A stretch of DNA of 24,173 nt, from the NCBI GenBank assembly GCA_008632985.1, contig QPGO01000014.1:820289-844461 (forward strand), written 5' to 3'. Below the pieces are notes generated by a model, which made no database searches, was not told where the DNA came from, and saw only the letters and a program-made list of their open reading frames with translations. Shown piece by piece: positions 1 to 24,173 of the stretch (position 1 is its first letter; every line of letters starts with the position of its first letter). A program made the translations under genes and the position numbers. The stretch is from Psammoneis japonica. Its lineage: Eukaryota.

Positions 1-2
1 AT

Positions 3-6000: not shown

Positions 6001-7784
6001 GTGATGTACCGCTTTCCAATATAACAGTCTATGACAATGAAGGAGCCACGCCGAATCGAATCCAGGGTGACGTCAATAAAAACGATTTGCTTGATCTTGA
6101 CGAACAGTGGTATTTGTACAACCCGGCAGGGCTCAACAGGGCCAGTTCATCAACACTGGATTTGCATCGGGCCTTTTTGGTAATGTAGTGGTAAGCGATG
6201 ACGACTCGAGCTCTTACCAAGGAGTGGGAACCGACGCGCCGACGGCTGGGCCCACGACTGCAACGCCAACAGGCTCGCCTTCGCGGCTGCCAACCACGGG
6301 TGAGCCAACCCCCCTTCCTACGATAGACCCCGATCCATCCATCTCTATTCAAGCAACAGGAAATGGCTTTGATATCCTAGTTATTCGCCAAGGCGAGACC
6401 ATTAAATGGAGGTATCGAATCGTCAACACGGGCAACGTTGCCCTGTCCAATGTTGTTGTTACTGGAGGCGCAGATTCGTCCGATCTTGTACTTGGTTCTG
6501 GCGATTTGAATTTCAATAATGAGCTTGATCCTGGCGAAATTTGGGAGTATGATGTTGATGGTGTAGCCGAAATGGTTTGTTTAGCGTCGTGGGAAAGGTT
6601 TCTGCAGAGTACAATGCTGCATCCCTTTCAGCGGTCGACTCGAGTTTGTACTATGGAATAACGCCGGAACCAGAAATTGGCATTCAAGAGGAAGCCGACG
6701 CTGTTCTCAATGTTACAAAGTACACAGTCACAAATAATGGAGAAAGCCCGCTTTCAGATTTGCAATTTACTCCCAAACAAGGTGTAGAACTACCAACATT
6801 GATCTCTGGGGACCTCAATTTTAACGGTGAACTTGATGAGGGTGAGAGTTGGGTATACGAGGCTGCTGGTGTTGCCAGTTACGAAGAAGAGCCGGTTCTT
6901 GTGACTGCCATGGCGGAAGCGGCACGGAGATTATGGCGGTTCCCCTTTCCTACCTACCCGCCGATCCTCCACCCCCACAGAATGCAGGGGTGGAAATAAC
7001 CACCGTCATAAATGGAGAGGATGGTTTGATTGTTCCTGTAGGAGAAGAGTTGATATTTGAGTATTACATCTTCAATTCGGGTGATGCCCCTTTGACCAGC
7101 ATTTCCGTTACGGAGTTGCATGCCGGAGTAAATCCTGATTTGATAAATTCAGACTTAGCTGGTGACAAAAGTAATGTTGCTCTAGAACCGGGCGCAACAT
7201 TGATCTATCAAGCGACTGCAATCGCCCAGGCGGGTCTGCAAGAGAGCGTGGGCGTTGTCACGGCAAGTTACAATGACAATGCAGTGTCCGATCAAGACCT
7301 GAGTTCGTATTTGGGTATTATTGGTGGAGAAGACCAAGGCTGTCAACCAAGCGTTTGGATTAAATCGAAGCAGGCTTGGCAACGCTATCGGCCAAACAAC
7401 AAGTTTGACACGGTGTTTGGTGTCGAGGCCTTTCCTCGCAAGAGCCTCAACAACGTCCTCGAGCAAAGCGGGTCGGGTGCAAAACAGGCACTAGGCAGAC
7501 AGGCTGTGGCTGCGCTTCTAAATTCGGCCAACAACAGGGTTTCTTATGGACTGTCGACCAACCATGTCATTCGTTTGGTCAAGCAAGCGTATGAAGCCCG
7601 AGACTATCATGAGGCAAAAGCGATGCTGAAGCGGCTCAACAAACGGACGTGTCCGTCTCGTATTGGCAGTGAAAATCTCCCGCCCACCCGACGTCCAACT
7701 CCTCGCAGAACCAGGCGACCGCGACGCAATAATCGTTCCAAGGGAGGAAAGGGTGGCAAAGGAGGCGGTGGCCTTCAACGGTAA
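3..7784 (+). CDS. Giant cell-surface/extracellular mucin-like adhesin candidate (>2500 aa, 5' end probably outside the window): N-terminal globular part, ~1500-aa PSxx stalk, six DUF11/DUF7507-like Ig-type repeats, a bacterial-type C-terminal domain and a basic/Gly-Lys tail
   Basis: The frame of ORF 147..6188 is open from base 3 (DETINILSSLENLKQ...), so ATG147 is probably internal. ORFs 6107..6661, 6577..6999 and 6849..7784 continue the same repeat-domain protein if one base is restored at each of ~6110 (tgg[g]ta), ~6572 (gaa[a]at) and ~6919 (gaa[a]gc). Recurrent motifs are Y-x-I/V-x-N-x-G-N-V-x-L-S-N and GDxNxNxELDxGExWxY/F. It ends ...RPTPRRTRRPRRNNRSKGGKGGKGGGGLQR-stop. Confidence 0.85.
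690..5240 (+). repeat. Coding tandem repeat: 12-nt (PSxx) unit with a 108-nt (36-aa) higher-order repeat in the homogeneous core (~1650-3960)
   Basis: Translation is continuous P-S-x-x. The unit PSTSPSAVPSSAPSDVPSTSPSDQPSDVPSVQPSTV recurs, and 'acaagcccgtcagcggtcccgagt' recurs at 108-nt spacing. Shorter PSGQ-containing variants are interspersed. Confidence 0.95.
5250..7320 (+). repeat. Six ~105-110-aa Ig-like (DUF11/DUF7507-type) domain repeats with acidic DxNxNxxLD loops
   Basis: The repeats start near ASVIFQISTNG, PSLSVNLSTYD, PSLKLTLLTNG, PSISIQATGNG, PEIGIQEEA and AGVEITTVING. Each contains NxG(N/D/E)xxLxx(I/V/L) and a (D/E)x(G/N/D)(E/A)x(W/L)x(F/Y) motif. A PT-rich linker lies between repeats 3 and 4. 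Family assignment is by motif recall, not a search. Confidence 0.7.
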
Positions 7785-8068: not shown

Positions 8069-9615
8069 CAAGGATTTATAAGTCTGTCAGGATGTACAAG
8101 CTCCGGTACAAATCTACGCACGAGCCTGTTGCCATGCGTGGTACGAACACCGTTAAAATTTGTGCTGCGTTTTACGGCAGTCTACGTAGAGCTTCTGACG
8201 GGACGAACTTATCATTTATAAATATTCATGCACAAATATCATAGATACCTCGAAGACGAAACGTGATGGAGGGGAGAAAACAGACGGCACACGAAACGTG
8301 ATGGAGGGGGGATAACAGACGGCACGAAATGTGATGGTGCGGGCGGTGGCGGCGTACGTGGATGAAGACAGAGACGAAATGGAATATCAAATATGGTAGC
8401 TCTAAAATCTGCCGCCGATTGCCAATCAACCCAATGACTGATTGATTGTTGTAATGATGAGTGATGATGTATGCTGCTGTAGTTCGCCAAATTGTCATGT
8501 GTTTCGACAAGCGCTGATTCACGCTAATGATCCACTTTGGGGTCGCCCGCTGGCAAGGATACGCGTGACGCAAAACACACGATGCAAGCGTCTCGTCCAA
8601 AGCATTGTCCATTACTTGAAGCCCGAGAGAAGCACTAAAATTTTATGCATTGCCCCTCATCACTGGCCAAGAATCAAAATAAGACACCACCTAGATGGGA
8701 AAGATAGAGATGGAGAATGATATTGTTAGTTTGTTTGTCATGCCGGTACTGTAAATGCATGATGCATCAATACTGCTTTAAATGTAAACATACCTTATTG
8801 TACACATCCTTCAGAAGTAAACTGCACGAGATTCCAGCCCGCTCGCTCGCATTCCAATCGCAGAGTCTCCACGCCACCAAGATTTACCCCAGTTTTCGGT
8901 CCCCGAACGAGGGAGTACTACTAACCGGCACTCGGCAAGGTCATGGACGTCAATATCCAACCCATTGCACATTATAATTGTCATTATTCGTGAAAGTATC
9001 AACTGTAGCTTGCTTGGTTCAGTCCAAAAGAGAGCGTAGGACACACCACAGCCCCGTTCCGATATAAGGAAGAACATGAGTTGAAAAGAAATGGTGTCGA
9101 CACCGACACGAAACTATGAGATATTGTTCGTCCGTAGGGGTGATACATTGCTCAACAGCTTCTCTATATGAGTTATAAAGACGAACATGTCAAAAAAAAT
9201 GAGTGAGATGCCGAAACAAAAGCACAATATAATTCGATTGCGACAGAGAGCGATAATGAGTCTCGAACCGTGGTGTCAATACAAAATCCTTTTTCCACCT
9301 TACAATTGGCCGCTTACCTTCGAAAAAGCAACATAAGCTGTTTCTATATGGAGATAAAGACTAGTAGATAGCGTTGGTACTGTTGAAAGGATCGTCAATA
9401 GTCTAATAAGCGGCGCTCCGGTTATCATGGTGTGTGGTGCTTTGATGAAAATGATGCGCGATCCCTTGAAAAAATGAGGATATACAAAATATACATAAAT
9501 TTATTTATTTTAACGGCGGAGTTCGCACCGTCAAGATTACTTAGAGGCTGGTGACCACGCATGGCAACACGCGTTCTACGCAGCTTGTACATCCTGACAG
9601 ACTTATAAATCCTTG
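8069..9615. mobile_element. Non-autonomous cut-and-paste DNA transposon (1547 bp), hAT- or P-superfamily-like
   Basis: Perfect 34-bp TIR caaggatttataagtctgtcaggatgtacaagct at 8069-8102, with its reverse complement at 9582-9615. Identical 8-bp TSD accgggcc at 8061-8068 and 9616-9623. Further inverted blocks are tgttgccatgcgtggt (8127-8142 / 9554-9569) and ccgttaaaat (8150-8159 / 9507-9516). No transposase ORF is recognisable. Confidence 0.93.
8256..8340 (+). repeat. Subterminal tandem repeat (~33-35 bp x 2.5) inside the TIR element
   Basis: acgaaa(c/t)gtgatgg starts at 8256, 8291 and 8324. The first two copies continue with ...aacagacggc. Confidence 0.8.
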
Positions 9616-9627
9616 ACCGGGCCAATA

Positions 9628-11030
9628 CATCCAAAAAAATCTACCCTCAGTTCTACCCTGTACCGTAGAGAGTAGTACTCATCCTACGGGGAAGAAGACC
9701 AACCCGTAGCCATCAGTATAGAAGCTACGTGCTAGTAATCAACCTACGCAAACCCCACGCGAGGAGTTGAACCCGAAAAAAAACTCCAAGACGAAGCGAG
9801 CGACGCTCAAAAAACACCGCGCCCTCACCTTGACCATGGCCTTTGAATGGTTGTGTTTGCACTCATTACAAAGCCCGCATTTTGGGCGTTTGATGCTTTT
9901 TTCTGAGGCACAGCTTTTCTCTCACTTTTTCTATTGTTTTGTGGTCGCTCATAGGTCTACCCGGCACCCATTGCAGCGACGGCATGAACACCGCTAAGGA
10001 TCAATATGACTATGGAAAAAAATGATGCTTGCAGTGGATTTGTTGCTGCTCCTCACCTCTTGGGTGTTTCGCGACTTTTGCTCCCAGAGAGGACACTGAC
10101 AGGACTGCCGCGTCTGACACAGTGGCATTCATAATCAAGCTCGGCTTCGGACTGCAAAGGTAAGAACAACAAAATTTGCTAATAATAATGTCGAATATGT
10201 GATGGAAATGTTTGTTTGTTGTACACATCTCATGTTTTGTGCGTTTGATGATTGTCAAGTGTGGCGCAGTTTTTTCCTCACAGTTTCTCCTGTCTCGCCG
10301 TCGCTGACAGGCCCACTCGGCACCCATTGCAGCATAGGTGCCAAGGTGAATACGGACCAAATAGTTATAAAAAAATGTATCTCAAGCCAAGGATGCGGAA
10401 CAATCTATTTAAAGATCAACGGCAGCAACCCTTGGTCGTGCCTTCCGCGCTAGGGAGCAGCTTGTTTTCTTCTCAAGCTGGTGGAAGTGCAATGAGGTGC
10501 TGATTGTTCCTTAGGCTAATGCAATTGTTTAGTAATATTTAAATATAAAATTCACAACAGTAATCTCAAATAGGTGCTTTAGAGCTTGTCAAAGTTGAAA
10601 GTAGTGCAAGTCGTTCGTCTGCTTTCCCACAGGGAGTGTGAAGGTTTCTACTGCACTCAGGACGCCTGTGAGTGCTGCTTGCCATGCCACCATAGATGCA
10701 GTTGGCATTGGTGCAGTTGCCGGGGTTGCATACGGCAACGCTCATGGTTGAGATGCCGCATTGAGACGAGTAGAACTTTCGAGTATTTTTTTTGTTCCTC
10801 CCGTCGCACTCGACATCACGCACCAAGGACAGACTGTTTAGATCGCGCGAAAGGGGCGCGCAGGGTAGAATTTTTGGCTCCGAAAATTCTACTGTACCTT
10901 CTACCTGAGTGGAATAAACAGTGGATGTACGGTAGATCTTTTTAGAAGATGCCAACACCGTATTGACATTTTTACATACGAGAATTCCACTTTCCAGTAG
11001 AAAAATGCTACTTGGGTAGAATTTTGGGTG
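9628..11030. mobile_element. Probable second non-autonomous TIR element (~1.4 kb) with a TA target-site duplication (Tc1/mariner-like ends)
   Basis: The left end ta|catccaaaaaaatctaccc (9626-9646) resembles the reverse complement of the right end gggtagaattttgggtg|ta (11014-11032), which reads ta|cacccaaaattctaccc. Clusters of TCTAC/GTAGA motifs lie at both ends, e.g. ttctaccctg 9651 and cagggtagaa 10861. The TIR is imperfect and no transposase is seen. Confidence 0.5.
9907..10333 (+). repeat. Diverged ~70-bp direct repeat pair
   Basis: 9907-9977 (ggcacagcttttctctcac...gtcgctcataggtctacccggcacccattgcagc) aligns with 10263-10333 (ggcgcagttttttcctcac...gtcgctgacaggcccactcggcacccattgcagc). Confidence 0.7.
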
Positions 11031-11069
11031 TAACGGTGCGGCACATCGAATCTCTAGAGAGCAGAGAGT

Positions 11070-12540
11070 GCGCCTGTGGAGGCCGTCACCAAAATGCAAA
11101 AGGATGCAATGTGTGCAAAACAAGCAGAGCAGCATTGCTGAAATTTTAATTGAATGTGAGCGAGGGAAACACACCTTGTTCCATCCATGAGGCTCAAGAA
11201 TCCATCCGCGGATGACTGCCAGATGTCCCCAATGGGAAGACAGTGGTGTCAGCCTGCCTGTCCTGACTCACACGCCCCACAAGTGCTCGCTCAACCCAAG
11301 TCAGCAGCTGATGTGAGGCAAGATGACTCTGCCACAAACACCTTGCACCACACCACCACCCACAACAAACATCTGAGACAGTCAGAACCCAGTGCAAGCA
11401 TGCAGGCCTGGTGCCAGAGCTCAGGTTCTGAACGTTGCATGTCATCACACCCTTGTGGGCTCCAGCTGTGCAATCACACAAATTCTGAACTGCACACATC
11501 TCACTTTTCACCCCATTTTTCATCTCTTCTTTGACAAAAGACAGTGCGCTGTTGTTTGTTTGCAGGACATTGCAGCCATTGCTGGCAGCAGCACGCTTCT
11601 TGTTTTGTTTGATGATGTTGTTGGCGTGCTCCCAGAGTGTGCTGGTGGCAAAAAGATGTGCAATTTTCTGAGCATCGTTGTGCAACTCTGATTCTCTGTT
11701 TCCAATGAAATGGTGTCATTGGGGAAGTGCAAACAATTGTCAAAAACAAAGAGTTTGAAGTGGAGCAAAAACTTTGTGTGGGTCAAAACACACTTCAAAA
11801 TGTTTTCAATTTGTTGTGTGATGCCAGTGATGGAGCAAATTCACCTTTTTGTTGCTGACAAAACAGTGTTGTTTTGACAAATGGCATGTCATTTTCATTG
11901 TGATGTTTTTTAAATGCATTTGTTGACTTTGTGATGCACAACTGTGCCACCTTGAAGATGTGCACCTCAGCAGCCACGACCCATGCTGTCACAGAACCAC
12001 AGGACAATGTTGGCTGGTGCCACATGTTGGTTTCCGATTTTTAACCTTTTGGGAAAACAGCTTGGCAGCCTCATGTTCTTGACAAGCATTTGTCTTCTAC
12101 CTGCCCTGAGATGACTGCAAAATGATTGGATGAGCCACTGCAATTAGAAAGTTTGTTTCCTCCTCCTGTTGGCACAAACGGTGAGGTGCTCACAATGCTG
12201 CATTTTGACACAACTGAGCAACCACAAAGTCTGCTCAAAATGGCATGATGCAGGGGCAGAAGTCACTGCCACTGCTCCTGCCTGGGTGGACAGTCATTTG
12301 GTTCAGGACAGTGTTGTTCCTTTGTTGTTTGATCCACTTCGGTGGGGCAGCACCGGACAGTGGCACCAACCTTGGCCAATCATCACAACATGTTCCCACT
12401 GCACAATTCTGTGTGTCGCTGGTGCAGGTTAGCGTGTTGCCAGAGTTGCTGGGTAGAAGCATTGCAGCAGCACCTAAAATGTGGACTTTGTTTCTTCTTG
12501 TGTGCCAGGCGCCACGTGTCATTCCAGTCCTTTGCGTGAG
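11070..12540. other. TpA/CpG-depleted, TpG/CpA-enriched hypermutated block (degenerate repeat or pseudogene relic)
   Basis: Manual count gives 8 TpA in 11101-12540, six of them in YTAR context. Overlapping Cys/His-rich, essentially Tyr-free spurious ORFs occur on both strands. Normal TpA density resumes at ~12553. Confidence 0.85.
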
Positions 12541-12653
12541 CTCTGGTGCGAATTATGTTGTGGGTAGTTTTAGTTGTCAAGCACTAACACGCAAAATAAA
12601 GTACCAGGCATTAATTTCTAACCGGCAAGCAAAGGAAAATGTTATTGAGTCTC

Positions 12654-14550
12654 TCAAGGAGAGGCAAAGGTGCTGAAAAATGTTTGCCATTCGGGTTCTG
12701 CCAGAATTGTCTTAGAATCAATCCAACAATAGATTTTCCTGTTGACCTTCTTGTCAAAACGCTTTCGAAGTTTCTCTGGACGTTTCGGATCTGGCGCTCC
12801 CAATTCAGCATGTTGATCCAAGGCAAGTGATTTGGTGAACAAGTCATTTAGAATGCCGTCTTCTGGACAAAGCATGCGCAAATCCAGAGCGGTTTGATTC
12901 ATTTTTTCTTGATGTTTCATTATTGCATTGATAACATTCGGTCGACTCCACAATGTGGTATCAATCAGGCCCGCCCGATTGGCGTCCAATGCCAAACCGC
13001 TGTAATACAGCCAATGAATGTTGCCCTTGTTTTCAACAGATTTTGAGCCTCCTTCAGCGTCACGTCGCATAATTTCCTTGCATGAAGCGGGAGCAGCACC
13101 CTCAAGCATGTCACACACAAATGCCGAACGCAATCCCTTGGGGTTGTTCAAGTCCAGAACTTTGACAGGGAAATACTTTGAAGCCATGTCCACTATAGAA
13201 TCAGTAAACCAGTTGAGCGTCGAGATCCAACCGGTATATACGCCCCAATCGTTGTTTTTGTCTGCAAACAGTGGTTGCACATAATGCTTTTCGCCCTTGT
13301 CGTCTATCCACGGAAACCTTTCGTCATAGCTCAACTCAGATGATTGCCACCAAACAGAGGGCACCCATTCAAAATATGGTCGATAGCCACTAATAATGCT
13401 GACGTCCCAGTCCTCCTTGGTAATTTGATATAGTTTTTCGTACTGTTTTTCATCATGTAATAGGACGATTGAATACCCTTCCTTAGATAGAATGATGTTC
13501 CTGCCGTAGTGTTTAAGATGGTCTAACTCTTTCGCCCAAAGGTCAAAAAAGTTTGATCGTCAAAAGGAATGTTACTCAATTCAGTACCCATGACCGTGCC
13601 ATCCTGAAACGTGTGTTCTTCATTCACATAATGCCAATTGTCTTGTTCCAAGAACCCATGCCAAGCCAATTCGGTCAATGCAGCTTGGACTGTAGTCGTT
13701 CCCGTTTTCGGAGGTCCAACGTGTAAAACAAGTCGTTGCTTTCTTTTGGATTTTGCGACTTCAACCTTGTCACTTGTCTCAAAAGATTGTTCATCCTGAA
13801 TTAGATTTGCATTACTGACAGGCCTCAAATCATTTCGCTTTTGTTTTGGCCGTTCTCGCCACCTATCGTCTCCGGCAATTTCGCATCAAGAGCCATGTTA
13901 GTAGGCGCCCCAGGTGGTGTATCTTGTTCATCTTTTGTCATGGACGGTTTCACGGCTTCTACCGCAACAGCAGGGTTCAAGTCGCTAGCTTCCACAACCG
14001 CGGGGGCAGGAGCACCAAGAGGTGGTGTATCTTGTTCGGATTGTGCGACTTCAACCTTGTCACTTGTCTCAGAAGCTTGTTCATCCTGAGTTGGATTTGT
14101 AGGTACTGCTGCTGCATCACCCGCACGCCTCAAATCGTTTCGATCTTTGTTCTCACCAGCTATCGTCTCTGGTAATTTCGCATCAAGAGCTATGTTGGTA
14201 GGCACATCACGTGGCGTATCTTGCTCGTCTTTTTTCATGGACGTTTTCACGGCTTCCACAACAGCAAGGTTCAAGTTGCGAGCTTCCGCAACCGCGGTTT
14301 GTTCATCCAGTTCCTTTTCTCCAGCTGTCGACTCAGAAGTTGGTGGATCAACGGGGGTATCGCCAATTGCTGCAAAAATCGCTCCGATCTGTTCTGTGGG
14401 ACGCAGGCATGGAAACGAAGGCACAATTGGAGCTCCAGCTTGTAGAACCAATAGCTGAGAGTGCAGGATGATGTGCAGCACAGCACCTGCATATAGCGCC
14501 AAATAAAGAAAGTGTTTCGAGAAACGTCGGTTTGCTGTTTGAAATGTCAT
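12654..14550 (-). CDS. Type II membrane-anchored sulfotransferase-like (P-loop) protein with a duplicated acidic stem; two apparent frameshifts
   Basis: ORF 13825..14550 has an N-terminal hydrophobic anchor (HFLYLALYAGAVLHIILHSQLLVL). ORF 13523..13828 has RLVLHVGPPKTGTTTVQ, a PAPS-binding-loop-like motif. After a shift at the homopolymer ~13545-13550 the frame reads FDLWAKELDHLKHYGRNIILSKEGYS...WDVSIISGYRPYFEWVPSVWWQ and joins ORF 12654..13364. The shift at ~13838 is supported by the intact first repeat copy (ENKDRNDLR). Confidence 0.75.
13750..14300 (-). repeat. Internal ~100-codon tandem duplication in the stem of the sulfotransferase-like gene
   Basis: Two copies of AV.EA..LN.AV.VEAVK.SM.KDEQDTP...PTN.ALDAKLPETI.GEN...RNDLR...QDEQ..ETSDKVEVA.S. 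Confidence 0.85.
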
Positions 14551-15263
14551 GGCTGAACAAGAGGCGTTGACGACAAGAACTCGCCACTCCTCTGCGTTTC
14601 TAAAACTTGCGCTTCCAAGAGCGGTCGGTGTTCACGGTTGCACGCACCCTCCAACCTCCAACCCAATCGCAGAAAGCAGTCCTCTTGCAGATTAACGGCT
14701 AGACGTACACTCGTTATCGATTTTGAATATTACAGTATATCCATTTGGTCAATCAATGTGCTAAGAAATGAATACATATATATCATTTATAACATCTACG
14801 TAAATAATTGTGTCAAATACTATTGAGATGACATTGATTCACAACGTCCGTCACGCGTGCGTCGAACGAGAACTGGTCTTCATTCATCCTGTCTTCGTTG
14901 CGCGTGAACGGAGCACGGAGCGCTTATTAGTACTTGCTTTTTGTGCTACACAGTACACAGTGTAACCGAATGAAACCTTACCGGTGCATGCCATATAACT
15001 TTTGTTGGTCACAATTGGGCACACAAAGTCGGTGAGCGACCAGCGAATTACAGACATAAATGCAATTTGATTGGCTCAAAATACAGCCTGATATGAACTG
15101 AACAACGAGCAGCGCACGAAAGGTGAGTCTTTGCTGGGCGATGATGGACGCGCAGTCTCCTTTTCAACTGCCTTTCTTATAGAAAGGAACCTTATTTTTT
15201 CATTGTTACTTGATCGCTGCTTTTCTAAAACTTGCCGTTTTTTCAAGACATTCTTTTGCGACC
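14551..15263. promoter_or_regulatory. Divergent (head-to-head) intergenic promoter region
   Basis: Lies between the minus-strand ATG at 14550 and the plus-strand ATG at 15264, with an AT-rich core at ~14720-14840. The call is positional inference only. Confidence 0.4.
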
Positions 15264-17189
15264 ATGAGTAATCTTCTTGGCTGCAGAGAACAAAAGACAA
15301 GGAAGCTTACCGCAGACGCTCAACTGCAGTTCGAAAATGAGCAGGCAAGGCTTGTAGCTCGCGAAAAACGCAAAAAAAGTCGAGCTGCAACTGCGACAAG
15401 TATAGCAGCAGGTACAGCTTTAGTTGCGCCGGCTATACGGGACACTGGCTCTAAGAAGAAATCACCCACAAACAGCTCGGTAGTAGACAGCCCCGTTGTA
15501 GTTGATGCATCTGAGGGAAAGAGCTCTGAAGATGATGCTTCTCGGGATGTATCCTCGAACCTAGAAAACGCCTCAAGTGACTTGGGCAAAGGAAGGAGGA
15601 CAAGAAAACTTACCGTTGAAGCGCAGTTGCAACTTGAAAATGAGAAAGAAAGGCTTTTAGCTCGCGAAAAGCGCAAAAAAAGCCGAGCTGCATCTGCGGC
15701 AAGTACAGCAGCAGGTACAGCAGTAGTTGCGCTGTCTATGAGGGACACTGGCTCTGAGAAGAAATCACTCACAAACGGCTTGGTAGTGGACAGCCCCGTT
15801 GTAGTTGATGCATCTGGGGGAAAGAGTTCTAAAGAGGTTGCTTTTCGGGACGTATCCTCGAACCAAGAAAACGCCTCAAATGTCTTGGGCAAAGGGAAGA
15901 GGACAAGAAAGCTTACCGCGGAAGCGCAGTTGCAACTTGAAAATGAGCAGGCACGTCTTGTAGCTCGCGAAAAGCGGAACAAAAGTCGAGCTGCGGCAGG
16001 TACAGCGGGCGGTGGCGGCGTTGACAGTGCTGTCGACGGTGGCGCAAGAGACAATACGGCGAAACTCAGTTCCAGAAAAAGAACTGAATCAGACAGAAGC
16101 CCAGATACCGGAGCGCAGAAGATGCCCGCGTCCAAACGCCAACGCAAAACAGCAAGCGTCAAAAAGCCGCGAAAGACTGCTCCCAAACTAGTCGGAAATA
16201 GTACGACAGAATCGGAGAACGACGAGGGCAGCGAATCCACTTCCAGCGCGAATACACCCCCCGCAGCCGTGGCAACCAACGGGATAACGATTGACTTGTC
16301 GTCAACTCATCAACCAGATCCCATGGTGACGTTGCTCGCTCATGAGAATGCGCTCAAAGCGCAGCGAGACGAATTACAGAGAGAGCATGCCGTTCAGATT
16401 GCTTTTTTGAAGCAAAAGCACCAGGCTGTAATTAATGCACTAAGGGACAAACTCGAGCAACAGGAGTTTGACAAGCGCAGGAAACTAGTGGCGAGAAACG
16501 ACAAACTGCAAGCCGAGCTGGCCGAAAGCAACAAGAAACAAAAGGCGGACGCAAGGAAAGTCAAAAAGATGGAAAGAGAACTCGAGCAGCTAAAAGATGC
16601 AGACAATGGAGATCCGCGAAGGCGAAAGCGCAAACTGAGTGTCAAAAACAGTCAGCTCTGGGACCAGCGATTTGAAGAGCTAAAAGCCTACAAAGCTTCT
16701 CATGGAACCTGCCTCGTACCAACAACACAGTACCCGGAGCTTGGTTATTGGGTTTCTCGGCAAAGGACGAACCAAAAATTGTATGCGAGTGGAAAGGAAT
16801 CCTCAATTACATCCGAACAAATTCAGAAACTAGACAGCATTGGAATGGTTTGGGGGAACCTTCTTCATCGCAGTGTGTCGTGGGAAGAACGGTACCAGCA
16901 ATTACTCGATTACAAGGCAAAACACGGGCATGTCCGTGTTCCTCATTTGCTTAAGGAGCCTCACGGTCTTGGAGAGTTTGTGCAAGCTATGAGGAGCGCG
17001 TACAAGTCTCTAAACAACAATGACTCTACCTCGAAACCGCGGAAAATAACGCCGGAACAAGTGGAGAAGTTGGAAGCAATTGGATTTGAATGGTCCCTTC
17101 GCACGAGGGGTACCAAAGAGAAGCACAGACTTGCCGCGTCACTGGAGGAGTCGCAAGAGATTATGGAGGAACCTTTTCCTTTGCATTGA
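15264..17189 (+). CDS. Helicase-associated (HA, PF03457-like) domain protein with two C-terminal HA domains, a coiled coil and N-terminal repeats; probably nuclear
   Basis: Intact ORF, first ATG at 15264. HA motifs are WDQRFEELKAYKASHGTCLVP...LGYWVSRQR...QIQKLDSIGMVW and WEERYQQLLDYKAKHGHVRVP...LGEFVQAMR...QVEKLEAIGFEW. NLS-like basic runs include PRRRKRK and SKRQRK. No helicase motor motifs are present. Confidence 0.9.
   Translation: MSNLLGCREQKTRKLTADAQLQFENEQARLVAREKRKKSRAATATSIAAGTALVAPAIRDTGSKKKSPTNSSVVDSPVVVDASEGKSSEDDASRDVSSNLENASSDLGKGRRTRKLTVEAQLQLENEKERLLAREKRKKSRAASAASTAAGTAVVALSMRDTGSEKKSLTNGLVVDSPVVVDASGGKSSKEVAFRDVSSNQENASNVLGKGKRTRKLTAEAQLQLENEQARLVAREKRNKSRAAAGTAGGGGVDSAVDGGARDNTAKLSSRKRTESDRSPDTGAQKMPASKRQRKTASVKKPRKTAPKLVGNSTTESENDEGSESTSSANTPPAAVATNGITIDLSSTHQPDPMVTLLAHENALKAQRDELQREHAVQIAFLKQKHQAVINALRDKLEQQEFDKRRKLVARNDKLQAELAESNKKQKADARKVKKMERELEQLKDADNGDPRRRKRKLSVKNSQLWDQRFEELKAYKASHGTCLVPTTQYPELGYWVSRQRTNQKLYASGKESSITSEQIQKLDSIGMVWGNLLHRSVSWEERYQQLLDYKAKHGHVRVPHLLKEPHGLGEFVQAMRSAYKSLNNNDSTSKPRKITPEQVEKLEAIGFEWSLRTRGTKEKHRLAASLEESQEIMEEPFPLH
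15285..15995 (+). repeat. 303-nt (101-aa) tandem repeat x ~2.3 in the N-terminus of the HA gene
   Basis: TRKLTx(E/D)AQLQxENExxRLxAREKRxKSRAA occurs three times, with 'cttaccg' at 15306, 15609 and 15912. Confidence 0.9.
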
Positions 17190-17753
17190 TTGGGTGATGT
17201 ATTTGGAACGGCCAACTGGAACAACGGCTTACGATTCAACGCGTTTTCAACGAGTCGACAGGGAACCCTGGTAGAGTGTTGTGTAATTGGATCGGGGACG
17301 TGTGGGGAAAAACAGTCGAAAAAGGGAGAATGTTGTCCAACGCAGAAATTCTAGAGGCTTTGGGCTAGAAGAGCAAACAGCTTGCAGTTCAATTGAGTAG
17401 CAGCACGGGATTCCATATGTTTTATCGGCTTATGCCTTTGTGCAATTCAATCATAATTGATGCTGGTTGCCCGGAAGAAGAAAACATAGATTTCACGTTG
17501 GAGCCATCGTTTTGCTTGTGTCTCGCTTTCTATGCCTGGTGTTCGTACAATCTCGTTCTCTAGTTGGTTTCATGTTGGCTAAACGTTCGTCCTTGTAATT
17601 GATTGGCTGTGTTCAGGTAAGCGCAAAAGTATTGGGACGACTCGTTTCGAGATTCAGGAGTACACCTGGGCCATCACGCATCGACATGTCTGATTTGAAT
17701 CGAGCACTGCCTCTTTGCTACGTCTGTTTGTACTTCATTTCGTGAACCCGTCG

Positions 17754-19369
17754 TCATTTCCGTTTGCGAAACGACCCTACATTCCAGCTACACTTCAGCT
17801 CTCCTCCGATCCATTTCAAGCTCATCCTCGGCTGCTTCCAGAAAACCACCAAAACTTCGTCATCCTCTTCTTTCTTCAAATCATCAGCTTCACCAAGAGC
17901 CAATAGCTCATCTTCTTCATCATCCGAAAGAACGTCGGAGCCAGGCGGAGCTTTCATGATGCGTTTCGTCTCCTCGAATTCCTCCTGGGCCGTCTCGATC
18001 GCTTCAACAAGACGTTCGTTGCGTTCCTCTAGTGTCATGGCCGCTTCCTCCTCAGCGCGTTTTCTCGTATCAGCTTCATCCGCTTCTTCTCGAGTAAAGC
18101 CTTCATCTGGCAATATGAAATCGTCAATTCTACCTTTAGCAAGATTCTTGTACGATATCGGCATGACATCTAAACAGTACATCCACCTCATGGATGCGGC
18201 ATTCGTCTCGGCGATAAGCGTATTCACAACCAGTGGGTCGTCACCCGCCAAAAGTTTTCATTGTGAAAGGGATCAAGGAATCGCTTGGCAAGATCAAAAG
18301 ACCTTGAAAGCACAATGTCATGAGTCCGGATCCCATGAGAGTCAAAATAGCGACGATCCTCGAGTCACAGCAACAAAGGGATACATCCACAAGACGGCAT
18401 CCACGAGGACTTGGACAAAGTGAGCATACGCAAACGGCATGCGACCCTTGAGAACAGATTCCATCGAATTGCCTTGAGCCCGAATTTCCTGTATTTTGGT
18501 AAGCAAAATTTGTTCAAAACCAAAGCCACCATCAATAATGCCAGCCTTTTGACCTTCCAGTACGAGTCGCAAGATCCACATTAAAACCGCATTGTGACGC
18601 TGATTTGGCGGAATTTTCGCTTCAATCAACAGAGATCGTTCCTGCGTTGTCATGAGTCCTCGTGAAACCATTCGCCTCATCCCTTGAGGCGTCAAGAGTG
18701 GTCGATGCGAGCGAGTCAGAGACGCGTAGACCAATATATTAAAGAGTCGGATATACCGAGCCGTGATTGTCAGGGTCCGTCGAGCATTTTCAGAAAATGT
18801 GGAACTTCCAGGAGGAGTTCATCCGAGCGCTGGCTAAAGCCTGCAAGCGCCAATATCAAATCATTCATTTTCCCTTGCAGAGCTCTACATGTCTGTAGAC
18901 AAGTGCGCCAGATTTTGTAGGACTGATTGACAAAAAAGGTCAACGTGAAAGTCGTCACAGATAATACTTGCATGTAAAGCGAGGAGAATTCTGTCAGAGC
19001 ATAATGAAACAGCGGCGTCCGTTTCATGCACACGTATACCGCAACAGCCCAGAGAGTACCTCGGAGGCAAGAAACCCACGTTTCTGCAAATACGGTTCCT
19101 CTGTATTGACTCCACATGGCTTTACTGGAAGGCTCAAATTGAATCATAATGGGTCGACGGCCACTGGTTCTCAAACAATCATCAAGAATACCATCTAGAA
19201 TTTCTTTGGTAGATGTCTGTTCCATAAGGATTGGCTCTATGTTGAGGACTCGTAAGCTGCTCGAGAGTCGTGACGAGTGACATGTAGAAAAGGCCTCCAC
19301 AGTAGCAGTGCATAGGAGAAGCATCCAAGGCGACATGAACACTCGTAAACGACAACATCGTGCCTTCAT
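17754..19369 (-). CDS. Plastid-targeted bestrophin-like (UPF0187/BST-type) anion channel; several apparent 1-bp frameshifts
   Basis: ATG 19369 gives MKARCCRLRVFMSPWMLLLCTATVEA|FSTCHSSRLSSSLR, a signal peptide + Phe + Ser/Arg transit peptide. Bestrophin-like motifs are TTFTLTFFVNQSYKIWR, ARYIRLFNILVYASL, MPFAYAHFVQVLVD and FQGLFDLAKRFLDPFHNE. The frame is restored by single-base additions at ~18820, ~18358, ~18297 and ~18250. A further one at ~17855 would give the end SFGGFLEAAEDELEMDRRRAEV with a stop at 17788. Confidence 0.82.
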
Positions 19370-20344
19370 TCTTGCTACAACTTGCAACAAACAGAGAGAC
19401 TAAAGACAACACAACATTGGACATTGCGAGAGAACCGAGAACCGAAAAAAAAAAACAAAGAAGATCATGTTGCGGTTTCAGTCACGAGTATCCAAGAGTA
19501 AAATTGCCGTCCTGAGATTTTTTCGAATTCTTGAGCGAAAAATGCATTTTTTGAGTGCAAGCACCTGGCTTTGAGTGCAATCCCCAATGGGAAACAAAAG
19601 CAGGCTGGAACTTGAAATGGAGGTGGCAAGCTTTGGCTTTTGTCACCAAAGGCTTTGTGTGCACTTCAGAGACACAAACCCAAGTTAAGATTGTGTGTTT
19701 GAGCATTTCAAGGCCTCACCATTTTGCCCTTGTCAGCTGTCACTTGTGATTTTCCAGAGGCCCATCTGGTCAAGGTGTTTGGGGGAGCTCCTCAAGGTGA
19801 GCACCATGAGAATTGTGTGCACTGAGCCATCATTCTGAAAAAGCACCTTCATGGCAAGGAAGATCTGTTGCCCCAGGACTTGAAGACACACACACCCAAA
19901 GGCATGCACTGGGTCTAGCGTGGGCCTGCATGTGGCCAACTGCAAGATGCAGTTTGATTGTGAGGCACCACAAGTGCTTGGCGGGGGTTCCGTCTCACAA
20001 AATCATGACAATTGTCAGGCCAGGCCAATTTGCAACCCCGATGGGATGATTCCAAGCTTGCGGGGCAGTGTGTTGCAATGGTGCGTCGCAGCACTTCTGC
20101 TCTTTTTGTTTGTGGTGAAGTGGCAGTTCCAGGTCTGTCACATGCACGGCAATCCCACTGTTGCAAATTAAATTGTCCTGTTGTGATTTCAGTTTGGCTG
20201 TCTGTGAACAACAGGGGAGCTTCGCTTGTTCTTTCCCGTGTTTGTGCTGTGAAGGTCACTCATCTGAGTCTGTGTTGGCCTTGAAGGACCCATTCTTGAT
20301 TGACCCAATGGCGAGTGGCAAGGATTGTTGAGCACAAAAGTCCT

Positions 20345-21211
20345 TCATCCATCCCCTCTGTTTCCAATTCTTTCACCCAACAGGACATTGTTGCAGCCAA
20401 GAAAAAGGGAGCAGCAAGTTTTGGCCACGTCATCGTCCTCCGACACATGGCACGCTTCAACGCTGTCTTTGATTTTCTCACAGAGAGTCTCTGCATGGGC
20501 CACGGCATCATTGCCGACTTGATTGGATTCACCAAGTGGGACAGCCCTGGATGTGATGTTGCTGAAAAAGGAAAGGGTCAAGGATGACAATGCCGCCTCG
20601 GCCAAGTTGGAGCATTTCTTGTTGCTGACACTGGCCCAACAAACGGAAAAAACAGCATCCACCCAGGTGTTCAAGGCGCTCGGATGACTGAATGCATGGC
20701 TCTTGATGCATGTTGCAGCAACAGACTGCATGTCTGTCTCCACCAAGCCACACTCATTTTGACTCCGATGCATCCAAAACCTGTGTAGAATCCAAGCCGT
20801 GTGCAAGATTTCAACACCCTCTTGGAGTCTTTTCATGATCTTGCAACTGTCATCGTGCAAGAGGAGGCAAATTGCATTGTTGAATCCATCGGTGTGGTTT
20901 GCAGCTTGATGGGCAACAGCACCATCCATTTCTTGAGTTGCAAAGTCAAGCTCATCAAAGGTTTCACGTAAATTGTTGAGAGGCATTTGCATGATGCCCT
21001 TCACAGCGAGAACAAGACACTTGGCATTGCATTTGATTTTTTCTTTCATGTGCGGACATGCATGTTTGTGGCCACCACATTCCCAGTCTTGCAACTGACA
21101 CTCTTTTGAGCAGCAGCAAGTGGAATGGCAATTGCTGCATTTGAACCGGCTGGACACCTTGAAGCATCGACAACACTCGGGTGGCACAACCGGCATCAAA
21201 TTCAAGAACAA
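20345..21211 (-). pseudogene. Hypermutated MYND zinc-finger gene relic
   Basis: CCRCFKVSSRFKCSNCHSTCCCSKECQLQDWECGGHKHAC matches the MYND consensus CxxC...CxxC...YCSxxCQxxDW..HK..C, but the conserved Tyr is Cys. There is no Tyr in 288 codons, with excess Cys/His. Confidence 0.8.
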
Positions 21212-21467
21212 ACAAACGTGTTGCGATCATTTGCACTTCAGAATTTTGGATTTCCAAAAAAATCATCGCCGCATCAATTTCAGTGACGACCGTTAAACTG
21301 TGTCCCATTTGCTGTGTTTTGCACATTTTTGAACTTGTTCATGAGAAGTGATGGTCACCATGATGTGATGGTGAAAACAGAAATGCATCTGTGCATTGTG
21401 AATGCTCCCCATGAAGAAACCACAGGTGAATGATCATGGCTTCCCCACTTTTTGCGGGCAGTGGTCA

Positions 21468-22478
21468 TCAACGGATCTTTTGGCATGTCTTTGAAAGAGT
21501 TGAAATCGTTGATGTTGGGTGCCCCCCTTGTTGCATCAACGTCTTCATTTCCATCCATGCGTTTTTTGTGCTAGAGAGCGCACAAAAGAGCAGTTGGCAA
21601 TGTGATTGGCATGCAAAACAGAAGGTTGATGAGTGAATGAGATTGGCGTGACAGTGCAAACAAAATCTGGAGAATTCAGGATGGATTGAAGAATGAAAAG
21701 GACCAAAGCATTGAGAAGCATTCATGCTGGTCAATTCAATGCAGCCATTTGCCAGGTGAGTTTGTGTGAAAAAATGACAACTCCTCTCCAGTGTGCTCAG
21801 AATGCAGACATGAGGAGAAGATGATTTTGTGTTCTCTCTTCCCAAACAAGAAGTCATGGTGCCATCCAAGATTCCATCTGGCAGACCTTGTCTTTTGTTC
21901 ACACTGCCCCAGGAGACCCATGCTCCATTGTTGACACTGCCCGCGCCTGCAATTAGACACATGCAGAGTCATTCAGCTTGACCACCATGTGCGCCAATTC
22001 CAGTTTGCGTGGATCTTTTGCTGCTTTGAAAAATCAAGAATTGCATCTCTCTTCCCAACAAGGGCTTGGGTGCAGCAAAGTGATTCAAAGCAGCGTCAGA
22101 AGCATGGCATGACTCGATGAGCTCGTCCCAATGGGCCTTCTTGGTGCACTCTTGAAATTTCTGGATCTTTTCCCGTGTCCTTTGTTCAGCAGATGACGTT
22201 GTGTTTTCTTTTTCAGTTTCTCTCTCTTCTCAAGTGTCCGAAGGATTTGTTAAAGTTGGAGGCACTTTTTCAAGAATGGACTGTGTCTCCCTCACATTCT
22301 TTCCCAGTTCCCATGCATGATTGATGCTGCACGCTGTCACATTTTGGCTGCACTGTGCTTTGTTCAAACAGCAAAGAGCAAAAGCCACAAAATTGCCAAC
22401 TTGACTGCAATCCTGATTGCAGCTCGATTGCGAACCGCAATCAAAACAATTGCAATCTGCTGATTGTTTGTCTGGCAC
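21468..22478 (-). pseudogene. Second degenerate reading frame of unknown product with in-frame TGA stops
   Basis: ORFs 22230..22478 and 21468..21962 are in the same frame. The gap reads SDT*EERETEKENTTSSAEQRTREKIQKFQECTKKAHWDELIES...GGQAE*LCMCLIAG, which is protein-like with TGA plausibly from CGA. Long open frames are cheap here because TAA/TAG are nearly absent. Confidence 0.4.
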
Positions 22479-22733
22479 TGGTCACAAAGATCACAATCGT
22501 GTTCACAATCAATTGCAATTGATTCGTGTCTAAAATTTTGTTGTGAATCAGGATTTTTGGCAAAAACGGGACCAAAAATCAACCGAAACGTGGTGTTCAT
22601 TCACCAGAAATGCGTTCTTGCATTTGTCAAGTTGTTTTCTCACCATTTGTTGCTGCCATGCCAATGGATCTGATGCTTGGTGCTGAGGTTAGAAAAGTGG
22701 CAGAGAAGTGTCAACACCCATTGGCACAGTGCC

Positions 22734-22932
22734 AATGCTGGGGTTGTCAAAGTCACAGAGTGTGTGGAGTGTGGAGCCCTCAAGAAGAGAGTCAGAGCTG
22801 GAAAATGTGGTGGCTGTTGTGGTTGTTTTGCTCAACAATGCTGGGATTGTCAAAGTCACAGAGTGCATGGGGCCTTTGTGAAGAGAGTCAAAGCTGGAAA
22901 ATGTGATGGCTGTTGCAGCTGTTTTGCTCAAC
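22734..22932 (+). repeat. Tandem duplication (~103 + 96 bp) within the hypermutated block
   Basis: aatgctggg(g/a)ttgtcaaagtcacagagtg...aagagagtca(g/a)agctggaaaatgtg(g/a)tggctgttg..g.tgttttgctcaac at 22734-22836 and 22837-22932. Confidence 0.9.
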
Positions 22933-24173
22933 ATCAAGCATGACATGGAAAAAGCAGCGCATCATCAGGAGCAGCACTTGAAAATGGCAACTTCATTCAG
23001 CCAGGGATGTTGGTCAATGCAAAGTGTCAGAAGTTGGCATCTGCTGCTCCTTGTGATCACCTGCTCCATTTTGTGGGTTTGGCTCATGCAGGTGCACTTC
23101 AAACACAGGAAGGTGAGCCCAAGCAGAAAGCCATGGTCTCATGACATTGGTCTGCGGTGTCAGAGTTGGGCCCACATTTTTAACCCCAAAGCTGCTGAAT
23201 GCAAACAAACCCAAAGTTGGAACAAGCATGTCAACATTGGAGCCAACCACAAGTTGATGCCAGCAAATTTGGGTTTTGGTCCAGGACACGGAGCCTTGCC
23301 CTCATTTTCACAATTTCATGAAGACTTCTCTGACAAAGTCTTTTTGCATGCATGGCCAATCCATCAACATGGGCAACAGGTTCAAAGTTGATGCAGAAAA
23401 AGTTTGTTGTGTTGTGTTGTGTTGCAACAGGTCCAAAGTTGGAAGCAAAGCTGTGAGCTGCAAAAGCGAGCACACAAAATGAAGGCTTGTTTTTCACCTG
23501 CGTTCCAATTTTTTGCTGCAGAGGTGAGCAATGTTCCCAAATGTCTTTGCACTGGGAGCTTTGTCAACATGGAAATGCTGTCATCTTGAACAGCCAAGCA
23601 CTTCTTCACAGATTCCAACAGGTCTGCAGTTCGCAGCTGTTGCAAGACATTGCTTGTTGGCTGAAGGTCTGAAATCCAAGGCAGTGTCTGGAGCCTTGTG
23701 CTGCACATCAGCGGTGGTTTTGGGCTGTTGTCAGTTGGTGCAGCCAAAGGAGGCAAAACACAGGATGTCTCTTTTGTGGAAGCAGCCAGGCAGAAGCCAC
23801 CAAGGAAGAAAACAGTCACTCACCCTCTTGAGGCAACAAGGTTTTTTTCAAAAAGCGAGACAGATCTTGCTTCTGCCACTCTCAAAGTTGTGTCTGAAGC
23901 CCCTGCTGTGAGAACCCAGCCAAGCAAGACAGCTGGAAAAGCCACTTTGGAAAACAACAACAACCAAGCTGGTGCTGCATGAAAAAAACTCTTGGAATGG
24001 AGTGCTTTGTTTTGGCAAGGGGGGGGGGGGCATTCTTTTCTCGTCATTGTTCATGCTGACTTGCCCAAACTGCATGTTTTCCAGCGGCTGCACTTTTTTT
24101 AAATTTTCACTTGTCAAACAACTTGCTTGATGCTGTGCAAAACAAGTGTGCCACCCAGGGCTGGCCAAAGTTG

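Follow-up and report, generated by a model that had tools for sequence, protein, structure and literature searches.

Two blocks of DNA in a 24,173-nt stretch assigned to Psammoneis japonica (GCA_008632985.1, contig QPGO01000014.1, positions 820,289–844,461, forward strand; hereafter the window) have lost nearly all of their TpA dinucleotides, and the few sites that survive follow a rule set by the bases on either side. We put at roughly 0.7 the probability that both blocks are DNA hypermutated in place by the host, through A:T-to-G:C changes at TpA that depend on the flanking bases and are made by an enzyme, with decay of CpG running alongside. Hypermutation at TpA is already known from Bigelowiella natans, and TpA-directed hypermutation of resident DNA was first reported in 2026; new here are a rule for the flanking bases, the finding that TTAA is immune, a CpG decay coupled to the loss of TpA, and a possible diatom host. 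The edges of the two blocks were taken from position lists of TA and CG:

11148..12429, hypermutated block 1 (~1.3 kb), with four internal TpA (TTAA twice, TTAG, and CTAC)
19500..24173, hypermutated block 2, with 13 TpA, reaching the end of the window

Across the blocks, TpA stands at ~3–6% of expectation and CpG at ~30%, and TG/CA is raised ~1.7-fold. Per kilobase, there are 1–6 TpA versus 65–76 expected from base composition and 7–27 CpG versus 50–60, with TG and CA at ~1.5–2.0 times expectation. For instance, four full consecutive 1-kb segments of block 2, counted from 20001, hold 3, 3, 3, and 1 TA where 65, 75, 76, and 69 are expected, with TG and CA 1.5–1.9-fold above expectation, and the partial segment 24001–24173 holds 1 TA versus 11 expected. 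In 500-bp bins, the observed/expected ratio (O/E) over 19501–24000 is 0.00–0.06 for TpA and 0.11–0.57 for CpG; in the bins around block 1 (11001–12500), it is 0.02–0.19 and 0.20–0.33, respectively, versus 0.36–0.87 and 0.72–1.41 in the remainder of the window. The edges of TpA loss and CpG loss coincide to within a few tens of bases. The preliminary description of this DNA, made from the letters alone, had placed the larger depletion at 19681..24105; that interval is indeed depleted, but the true start lies at ~19500 and depletion continues to the end of the window at 24173. A repeat comparison within the window found blocks 1 and 2 unrelated to each other or to other window DNA, so the window supplies no ancestor sequence for either.

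Two observations concern the surroundings of the blocks. In the 300 bases to the right of block 1 (12430–12730), 7 of 14 TpA are YTAR (Y, pyrimidine; R, purine) and 11 of 14 are TAR, compared with a YTAR background of 18.9%, and this stretch may be a partly mutated fringe of the block. A run of 11 A lies within gaaccgagaaccgaaaaaaaaaaacaaag, at window positions 19440–19460, ~40–60 bases to the left of the edge of block 2.

The window holds 704 TpA in total, every one of which was listed, and only 17 are block survivors:

11910..11913, TTAA, block 1 (TpA at 11911)
12041..12044, TTAA, block 1 (TpA at 12042)
12097..12100, CTAC, block 1 (TpA at 12098)
12144..12147, TTAG, block 1 (TpA at 12145)
19685..19688, TTAA, block 2 (TpA at 19686)
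19915..19918, CTAG, block 2 (TpA at 19916)
20168..20171, TTAA, block 2 (TpA at 20169)
20785..20788, GTAG, block 2 (TpA at 20786; TAC on one strand)
20968..20971, GTAA, block 2 (TpA at 20969; TAC on one strand)
21293..21296, TTAA, block 2 (TpA at 21294)
21571..21574, CTAG, block 2 (TpA at 21572)
21953..21956, TTAG, block 2 (TpA at 21954)
22250..22253, TTAA, block 2 (TpA at 22251)
22530..22533, CTAA, block 2 (TpA at 22531)
22689..22692, TTAG, block 2 (TpA at 22690)
23180..23183, TTAA, block 2 (TpA at 23181)
24099..24102, TTAA, block 2 (TpA at 24100)

The tally of 13 survivors first given for 19681–24105 (six TTAA, two CTAG, two TTAG, and one each of CTAA, GTAG, and GTAA) is exact. Eleven of them are YTAR, versus 129 of the 684 TpA outside the blocks (18.9%; binomial p=5.7e-7), and six are TTAA, versus 18 of 684 (2.6%; p=4.9e-7). 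When the repeat-bearing open reading frame (ORF) region, 1–6188, is left out of the background, the YTAR share is 16.8% of 493 TpA (p=1.7e-7 for 11/13). At 11100–12500, YTAR sites lie at 11147, 11911, 12042, 12145, 12430, and 12475, and the non-YTAR sites are CTAC at 12098 and GTAG at 12454, reproducing the share of six in eight described earlier for 11.1–12.5 kb. Pooling both blocks, 14 of 17 survivors are YTAR. A back-mutation model built on the 1320 TG/CA source sites in the blocks predicts only 23.3% YTAR and 7.7% TTAA (p=5.4e-6 for the observed 11/13 YTAR). Thus, the YTAR excess does not mirror the unmutated background, whether 18.9%, 16.8%, or 23.3% YTAR is predicted, and the survivors do represent, as had been proposed, a footprint rather than drift: the flank preference is real (p<=5.4e-6 against background and back-mutation alike).

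We analyzed the flank preference in ten strand-symmetric NTAN classes, comparing the survivors of both blocks with expected counts from 12 kb of neighboring DNA scaled to block length:

ATAA/TTAT, seen 0, expected 39.1
ATAC/GTAT, seen 0, expected 31.7
ATAG/CTAT, seen 0, expected 24.8
ATAT, seen 0, expected 18.8
GTAC, seen 0, expected 21.3
GTAA/TTAC, seen 1, expected 31.7
CTAC/GTAG, seen 2, expected 35.6
CTAA/TTAG, seen 4, expected 24.3 (survival 0.16)
CTAG, seen 2, expected 9.4 (survival 0.21)
TTAA, seen 8, expected 7.4 (full survival)

All ten classes are accounted for by a half-site model, in which the A of each strand is lost independently according to the base that neighbors it. With two backgrounds, half-site survival is 0.89–1.05 when this base is A, 0.30–0.33 for G, 0.07 for C, and 0 for T, corresponding to loss rates of T >= C (~2.7) > G (~1.1) >> A (~0), so that TAG is lost at ~40% of the rate of TAC. 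A single rule, TAT >= TAC > TAG >> TAA, therefore fits the ten classes, and because TAA is immune on both strands, TTAA alone survives in full. The earlier formulation, in which TAY/RTA is hit hardest and YTAR is spared, is a good first approximation, but the sparing of YTAR is partial, given that survival is 0.21 for CTAG and 0.16 for CTAA/TTAG and only TTAA is kept in full. A T at position -1 is obligatory: AAN and GAN trinucleotides remain at background, and only TA is lost, not AA, CA, or GA. In both-strand counts, AT is 674 versus 747 in the scaled background and AA/TT is 1106 versus 1012, bearing out the earlier remark that ApT and ApA stay common.

That the blocks have been mutated in place is supported by composition, a decayed gene, and sequence variants. 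The summed share of N[TA+TG+CA+CG]N in each of 16 flank classes is equal in the blocks and in neighboring DNA. The unchanged class totals indicate that the changes are transitions within the YR core, taking TA and CG to TG/CA, and such constancy is hard to obtain from a foreign composition. Two further features lie in block 2:

20348..21226, minus strand, decayed gene with a 293-codon open frame, a MYND zinc finger followed by ~250 amino acids
22725..22940, plus strand, tandem duplicate with copies of ~100 bp

The MYND match in the window copy is weak (E=0.051, 14.1 bits, against a Pfam cut-off of 22.7), and a word-based protein search with this frame gave no match. A full HMMER scan, however, returned 61 relatives at E<=1e-3, several spanning residues 16–264 (top full-length match, 1.7e-15), and zf-MYND scores above its cut-off in all six relatives tested. 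Compared with 19 aligned relatives, the window frame has 0% Tyr versus 2.0% (it contains no Tyr codon at all), 8.5% Cys versus 3.2%, 5.1% His versus 2.2%, and 3.1% Arg versus 7.2%. In the tandem duplicate, TG in one copy is matched by CA at the same place in the other; a single ancestral TA (or CG) would give this pattern if the two copies had resolved it separately, each on a different strand.

A comparison with run X1, the one public DNA run found to contain the locus (no RNA run is listed as containing it), provides two polymorphic sites in block 1:

11345, TTGC in the window, TTAC in the run X1 contig
11562, TTGC in the window, TTAC in the run X1 contig

The alignment of block 1 with its run X1 contig (11211–13102) shows nine differences in ~0.9 kb, all transitions; besides these two sites, three are CpG/TpG. 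The unmutated stretch 14536–18413 differs from one X1 contig by eight other letters and four gaps in 3.9 kb, and transitions make up four of the nine differences listed individually. Divergence between the window and X1 is several-fold greater within block 1 than in the unmutated stretch. Indirect evidence for A-to-G/T-to-C transitions at TpA comes from the flank totals, the intact AAN, GAN, and AT, the replacement of Tyr by Cys or His, and the TTGC/TTAC sites. The flank totals and the total loss of Tyr are better matched by decay of resident DNA than by selection or a foreign signature.

Loss of CpG is less complete than that of TpA. Both blocks together hold 96 CpG versus 319 expected (~70% lost), and the loss is even over the ten NCGN classes (heterogeneity p=0.83); it resembles the decay that methylated CpG normally undergoes where DNA is silenced rather than the work of a dual deaminase preferring TCG. 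Copy number was estimated from contig depth in run X1, with reads matched at 80% likeness and single-copy DNA at ~60. By this measure, 19.4–22.4 kb is single-copy (~37–74) and 22.4–24.2 kb is multi-copy (160–480). A six-frame Pfam scan of both blocks returned nothing credible, the one sub-threshold match being to S-Me-THD_C (E=0.023).

Taken together, these results show that A:T-to-G:C transitions, striking both strands, have converted nearly all TpA into TpG or CpA. The agent would be an enzyme whose footprint covers three bases, T-A-B (B = not A). An adenine deaminase of nuclear DNA is the most likely candidate, turning A into inosine, which is read as G. The enzyme may be aimed at silenced or foreign DNA that is also CpG-methylated, and methylation of the target would account for the context-free decay of CpG in the same blocks. 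A more specific and tentative version, which we consider possible without favoring it, is that a diatom-like alga, outside Rhizaria, defends its genome with a dedicated nuclear DNA adenine deaminase of T-A-(not A) specificity, acting together with CpG methylation. The enzyme would then be an undescribed one, neither ADAR nor the housekeeping ADAT2/3, because immunity of TAA combined with an appetite for TAT argues against both.

More than one reading of which base is changed fits the survivors. As TA is self-complementary, TAY (specified by the base 3' of the changed A) and RTA (specified two places 5') predict identical survivors, and T-to-C in RTA leaves the same sites as A-to-G in TAY. The thymine could accordingly be the base that is altered, by an enzyme modifying T in 5'-R-T-A-3' of silent DNA, for example, a JBP/TET-type oxidase making 5-hydroxymethyl- or 5-formyluracil, with the modified T sometimes copied as C. 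In dinoflagellates and kinetoplastids, hydroxymethyluracil and base J favor TpA, and 5-formyluracil is able to mispair with G, although the telomeric J site is T-J-A, a context immune here. The products are mixed. In the MYND frame, Tyr106 (present in 14/19 relatives) and Tyr177 (11/19) are now His (cCATc and cCATg), that is, coding-strand T-to-C beside a 3' T, which points to RTA and is a mark against an adenine target. Tyr38, present in 19/19 relatives, is now Cys (cTGCt), which points to TAY. In the T..T flank class, the gain of TG is about equal to the TA lost and CA is not raised, again pointing to TAY; in the remaining three YTAY classes, to the detriment of that reading, correction for CpG decay leaves TG without a clear excess. 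Similarly, both polymorphic sites in block 1 read TTGC/TTAC and point to TAY, their polarity being assumed, which weakens them. A composition-based product test rules out pure RTA if CpG decays equally to TG and CA. On balance, we regard a thymine target as unlikely. The preliminary description had named 5'-T-A-Y as the preferred substrate; the survivors fit it, but RTA fits them equally, the products are mixed, and TAG is also a target.

Slightly less probable still is a mutator that strikes any TpA, with TTAA shielded as a four-base duplex word by TTAA-specific adenine methylation or a bound protein and the differences among the remaining contexts being noise. TTAA is the only class with full survival (8 seen versus 7.4), and a TTAA-specific term slightly betters the half-site fit with one background (likelihood-ratio test p=0.033), a point that tells against a single flank rule. 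With the other background, the term is unneeded (p=0.115), and the remaining contexts do differ: the five classes lacking survivors show 0 of 135.7 expected, compared with 6 of 33.7 in CTAG and CTAA/TTAG. We consider editing at the RNA level very improbable. A transcript or double-stranded RNA of an element would have been hyperedited, ADAR-like or ADAT-like, and then copied into DNA, and several RNA editors do typically make A-to-G changes after U at position -1. A single edited RNA would leave its changes on one strand only, yet block 2 has TG and CA in nearly equal numbers (522:491), interspersed on a fine scale (runs z=-0.5; heterogeneity over 300-bp windows p=0.31), which argues against reverse copying of an edited RNA and against long tracts of change on one strand. 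ADAR can also edit an A that follows A, but AA is untouched here; the target at 19.4–22.4 kb is single-copy by depth, and no reverse transcriptase was found in the six-frame Pfam scans of the blocks. On the strand counts, the runs statistic, and AAN at background, ADAR-type hyperediting via an RNA copy was rejected as a candidate. A preference of ADAR for a 5' U is cited in the Discussion of the B. natans preprint (Mettrop et al., bioRxiv 10.64898/2026.01.13.699255), which also places the changes in that species in resident single-copy DNA during clonal growth. Fungal RNA editing likewise has U at -1 but often falls at UAG and UAA (PMC11156358), whereas TAA is immune here. Least probable of all is the absence of any flank preference, the 13 TpA of block 2 being recent back-mutations of TG/CA, or the blocks carrying the composition of a donor genome or of selection. 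TTG/CAA is common in the blocks, which would place many newly formed TpA in TTAN or NTAA, but the back-mutation model falls far short of the 11/13 YTAR and 6/13 TTAA observed, the flank-class totals equal those of neighboring DNA, and a real gene is left without any Tyr.

Several further points weigh against in-place hypermutation by a host enzyme as we propose it. The survivors number 17 in all, and the counts expected of them come from 12 kb of neighboring DNA, not from an ancestor. Methylation of the blocks is a deduction from the decay of CpG alone and is best regarded as presumptive. The target may or may not be foreign: relatives of the MYND frame come from environmental sequence data only, and no relative was found in viral contigs. 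An element of ~30 copies beside block 1 is unhit, with a depth of 1400–2600 and a TpA O/E of 0.50–0.87 over 8.0–11.0 kb; as most of block 2 is single-copy and this high-copy neighbor is intact, copy number does not mark targets. There is no deaminase gene within the window. Finally, the amphioxus enzyme BjADAT2, an ADAT2 that can use both A and C in DNA as substrates, favors the contexts GAA (for A) and TCG (for C) when acting on E. coli DNA (PMC10354150), and these differ from the TA footprint described here.

The window as a whole has a eukaryotic character, and outside the blocks it contains three larger features:

147-6188, PT-repeat/DUF7507 ORF of 2013 codons, with 27 copies of a 108-nt PT repeat and DUF7507 domains at its end
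8069-9615, element bounded by terminal inverted repeats of 37 nt, 97% complementary
15210-17189, HA-domain ORF

Downstream of the PT-repeat ORF, additional DUF7507-like pieces lie in other frames at 6849–7784, and the two regions (147–6188 and 6849–7784) may belong to a single large gene for a surface protein, interrupted by introns or frameshifts. The 8.0–11.0 kb region, which abuts block 1, belongs to a family of ~30 copies and is not TpA-depleted. Within the HA-domain ORF, three 303-nt tandem repeats, 78–84% alike, occupy 15283–15994; the protein repeat that they specify is rich in lysine and glutamate and precedes two HA domains. A six-frame Pfam scan of 6.2–19.5 kb found DUF7507 and HA only. 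The named homologues of the unmutated genes come from the diatoms Chaetoceros neogracilis, Cyclotella cryptica, Cyclotella atomus, and Epithemia clementina, and none from Bigelowiella; as identities are only 28–48% (28–36% for the HA-domain homologues) in repeat-rich domains, these names are a hint of a diatom host rather than proof of one, and two bacterial metagenome-assembled genomes are named by matches to the low-complexity PT repeat. Scanning metagenome contigs with the MYND protein as single query gave three loci, matching in the MYND finger only. One of these, a contig of 2120 bases, has a TpA O/E of 0.40, a CpG O/E of 0.47, and TG/CA at 1.5, and may be either unremarkable in composition or, in a different organism, at an early point of such decay; it has no YTAR bias (10/51 TpA) and was dropped as a replicate.

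The flank rule provides a fingerprint for testing any candidate enzyme; ADAR-like editing is already at odds with it, and it also weighs, though only weakly, against ADAT2 as the candidate. If the host is a diatom, the process extends beyond one chlorarachniophyte and outside Rhizaria, and would point to a wider algal genome defence. Such a defence, if true, pushes GC up rather than down and strips its targets of Tyr codons and of TAA/TAG stops. Base-editor engineering could also draw on a naturally occurring adenine deaminase that acts on DNA in a narrow sequence context, if one exists.

Among known systems, ADAR hyperediting and the APOBEC3/AID deaminases of animals resemble the process described here in leaving clustered changes of a single transition type, with a neighbor preference, in viruses or mobile elements. 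The substrate of ADAR is double-stranded RNA, and APOBEC/AID alter C rather than A, in strand-coordinated runs; unlike both, the blocks have untouched AA and lack strand runs. Repeat-induced point mutation (RIP) of ascomycetes is similarly a host process that acts on selected kilobase-scale stretches, makes one transition type in a dinucleotide context, and leaves sharp edges and dead genes. RIP turns CpA into TpA, so that TpA rises and GC falls (PMC7296669, which covers this in part), the opposite of the destruction of TpA seen here. Nor does duplication trigger the changes in this window, since block 2 is mostly single-copy and the ~30-copy neighbor is intact. Fungal RIP was rejected on these opposite dinucleotide signs and the mostly single-copy block 2.

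TadA and ADAT2-ADAT3 share with the present mutator a target A preceded by T/U. The natural site of bacterial TadA is U-A-C-G, and early evolved editors favored YAC; the tRNA substrates of eukaryotic ADAT2/3 include U-A-A and are not known to include U-A-U. The ranking found here, T >= C > G >> A, if read as a preference for the 3' neighbor, is the reverse of the eukaryotic sites, and the U-A-C of bacterial TadA comes closer to it. The link between TadA, with its UAC target, and this mutator, which the preliminary description had drawn, is therefore to be taken as an analogy only, unproven.

The closest parallel is the mutation accumulation study of B. natans, in which, according to the preprint, two integrated viral regions accounted for 231 of the 302 mutations in the nuclear genome, and 230 of those 231 were A-to-G or T-to-C, all on TpA (bioRxiv 10.64898/2026.01.13.699255). 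The authors describe an ongoing, line-specific process at ~1e-7 to 1e-6 per site per generation, count 124 clusters poor in TpA and rich in CpA+TpG in the genome, and propose an ADAT2 homologue as the enzyme, citing amphioxus ADAT2 as precedent. The main text of the preprint gives no flanking-base rule and no mention of CpG (the terms context, trinucleotide, flanking, TTAA, and CpG are all absent from it), though its figures and supplements may hold more. In a literature search that stopped short of subscription journals and bioRxiv supplements, this preprint was the sole work on TpA-specific DNA hypermutation, and no report of a TpA-depletion signature in diatoms was found. Decay here is near complete (TpA O/E 0.03), unlike the 0.45 given for the nucleocytoplasmic large DNA virus (NCLDV) region of B. 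natans, and the targets lack a viral match, with no viral-contig relative and no credible Pfam match in the blocks. In other respects, the two cases agree: both show A:T-to-G:C changes on TpA that give TpG and CpA, single-copy DNA can be a target in both, and a zinc-finger family is among the affected genes. Under the cluster cut-offs of the preprint (Rho TpA <=0.43, Rho CpA+TpG >=1.52, and >=3 consecutive 1-kb windows), block 2 would itself be counted as a cluster, and block 1, too short at ~1.3 kb to span three windows, bears the same signature.

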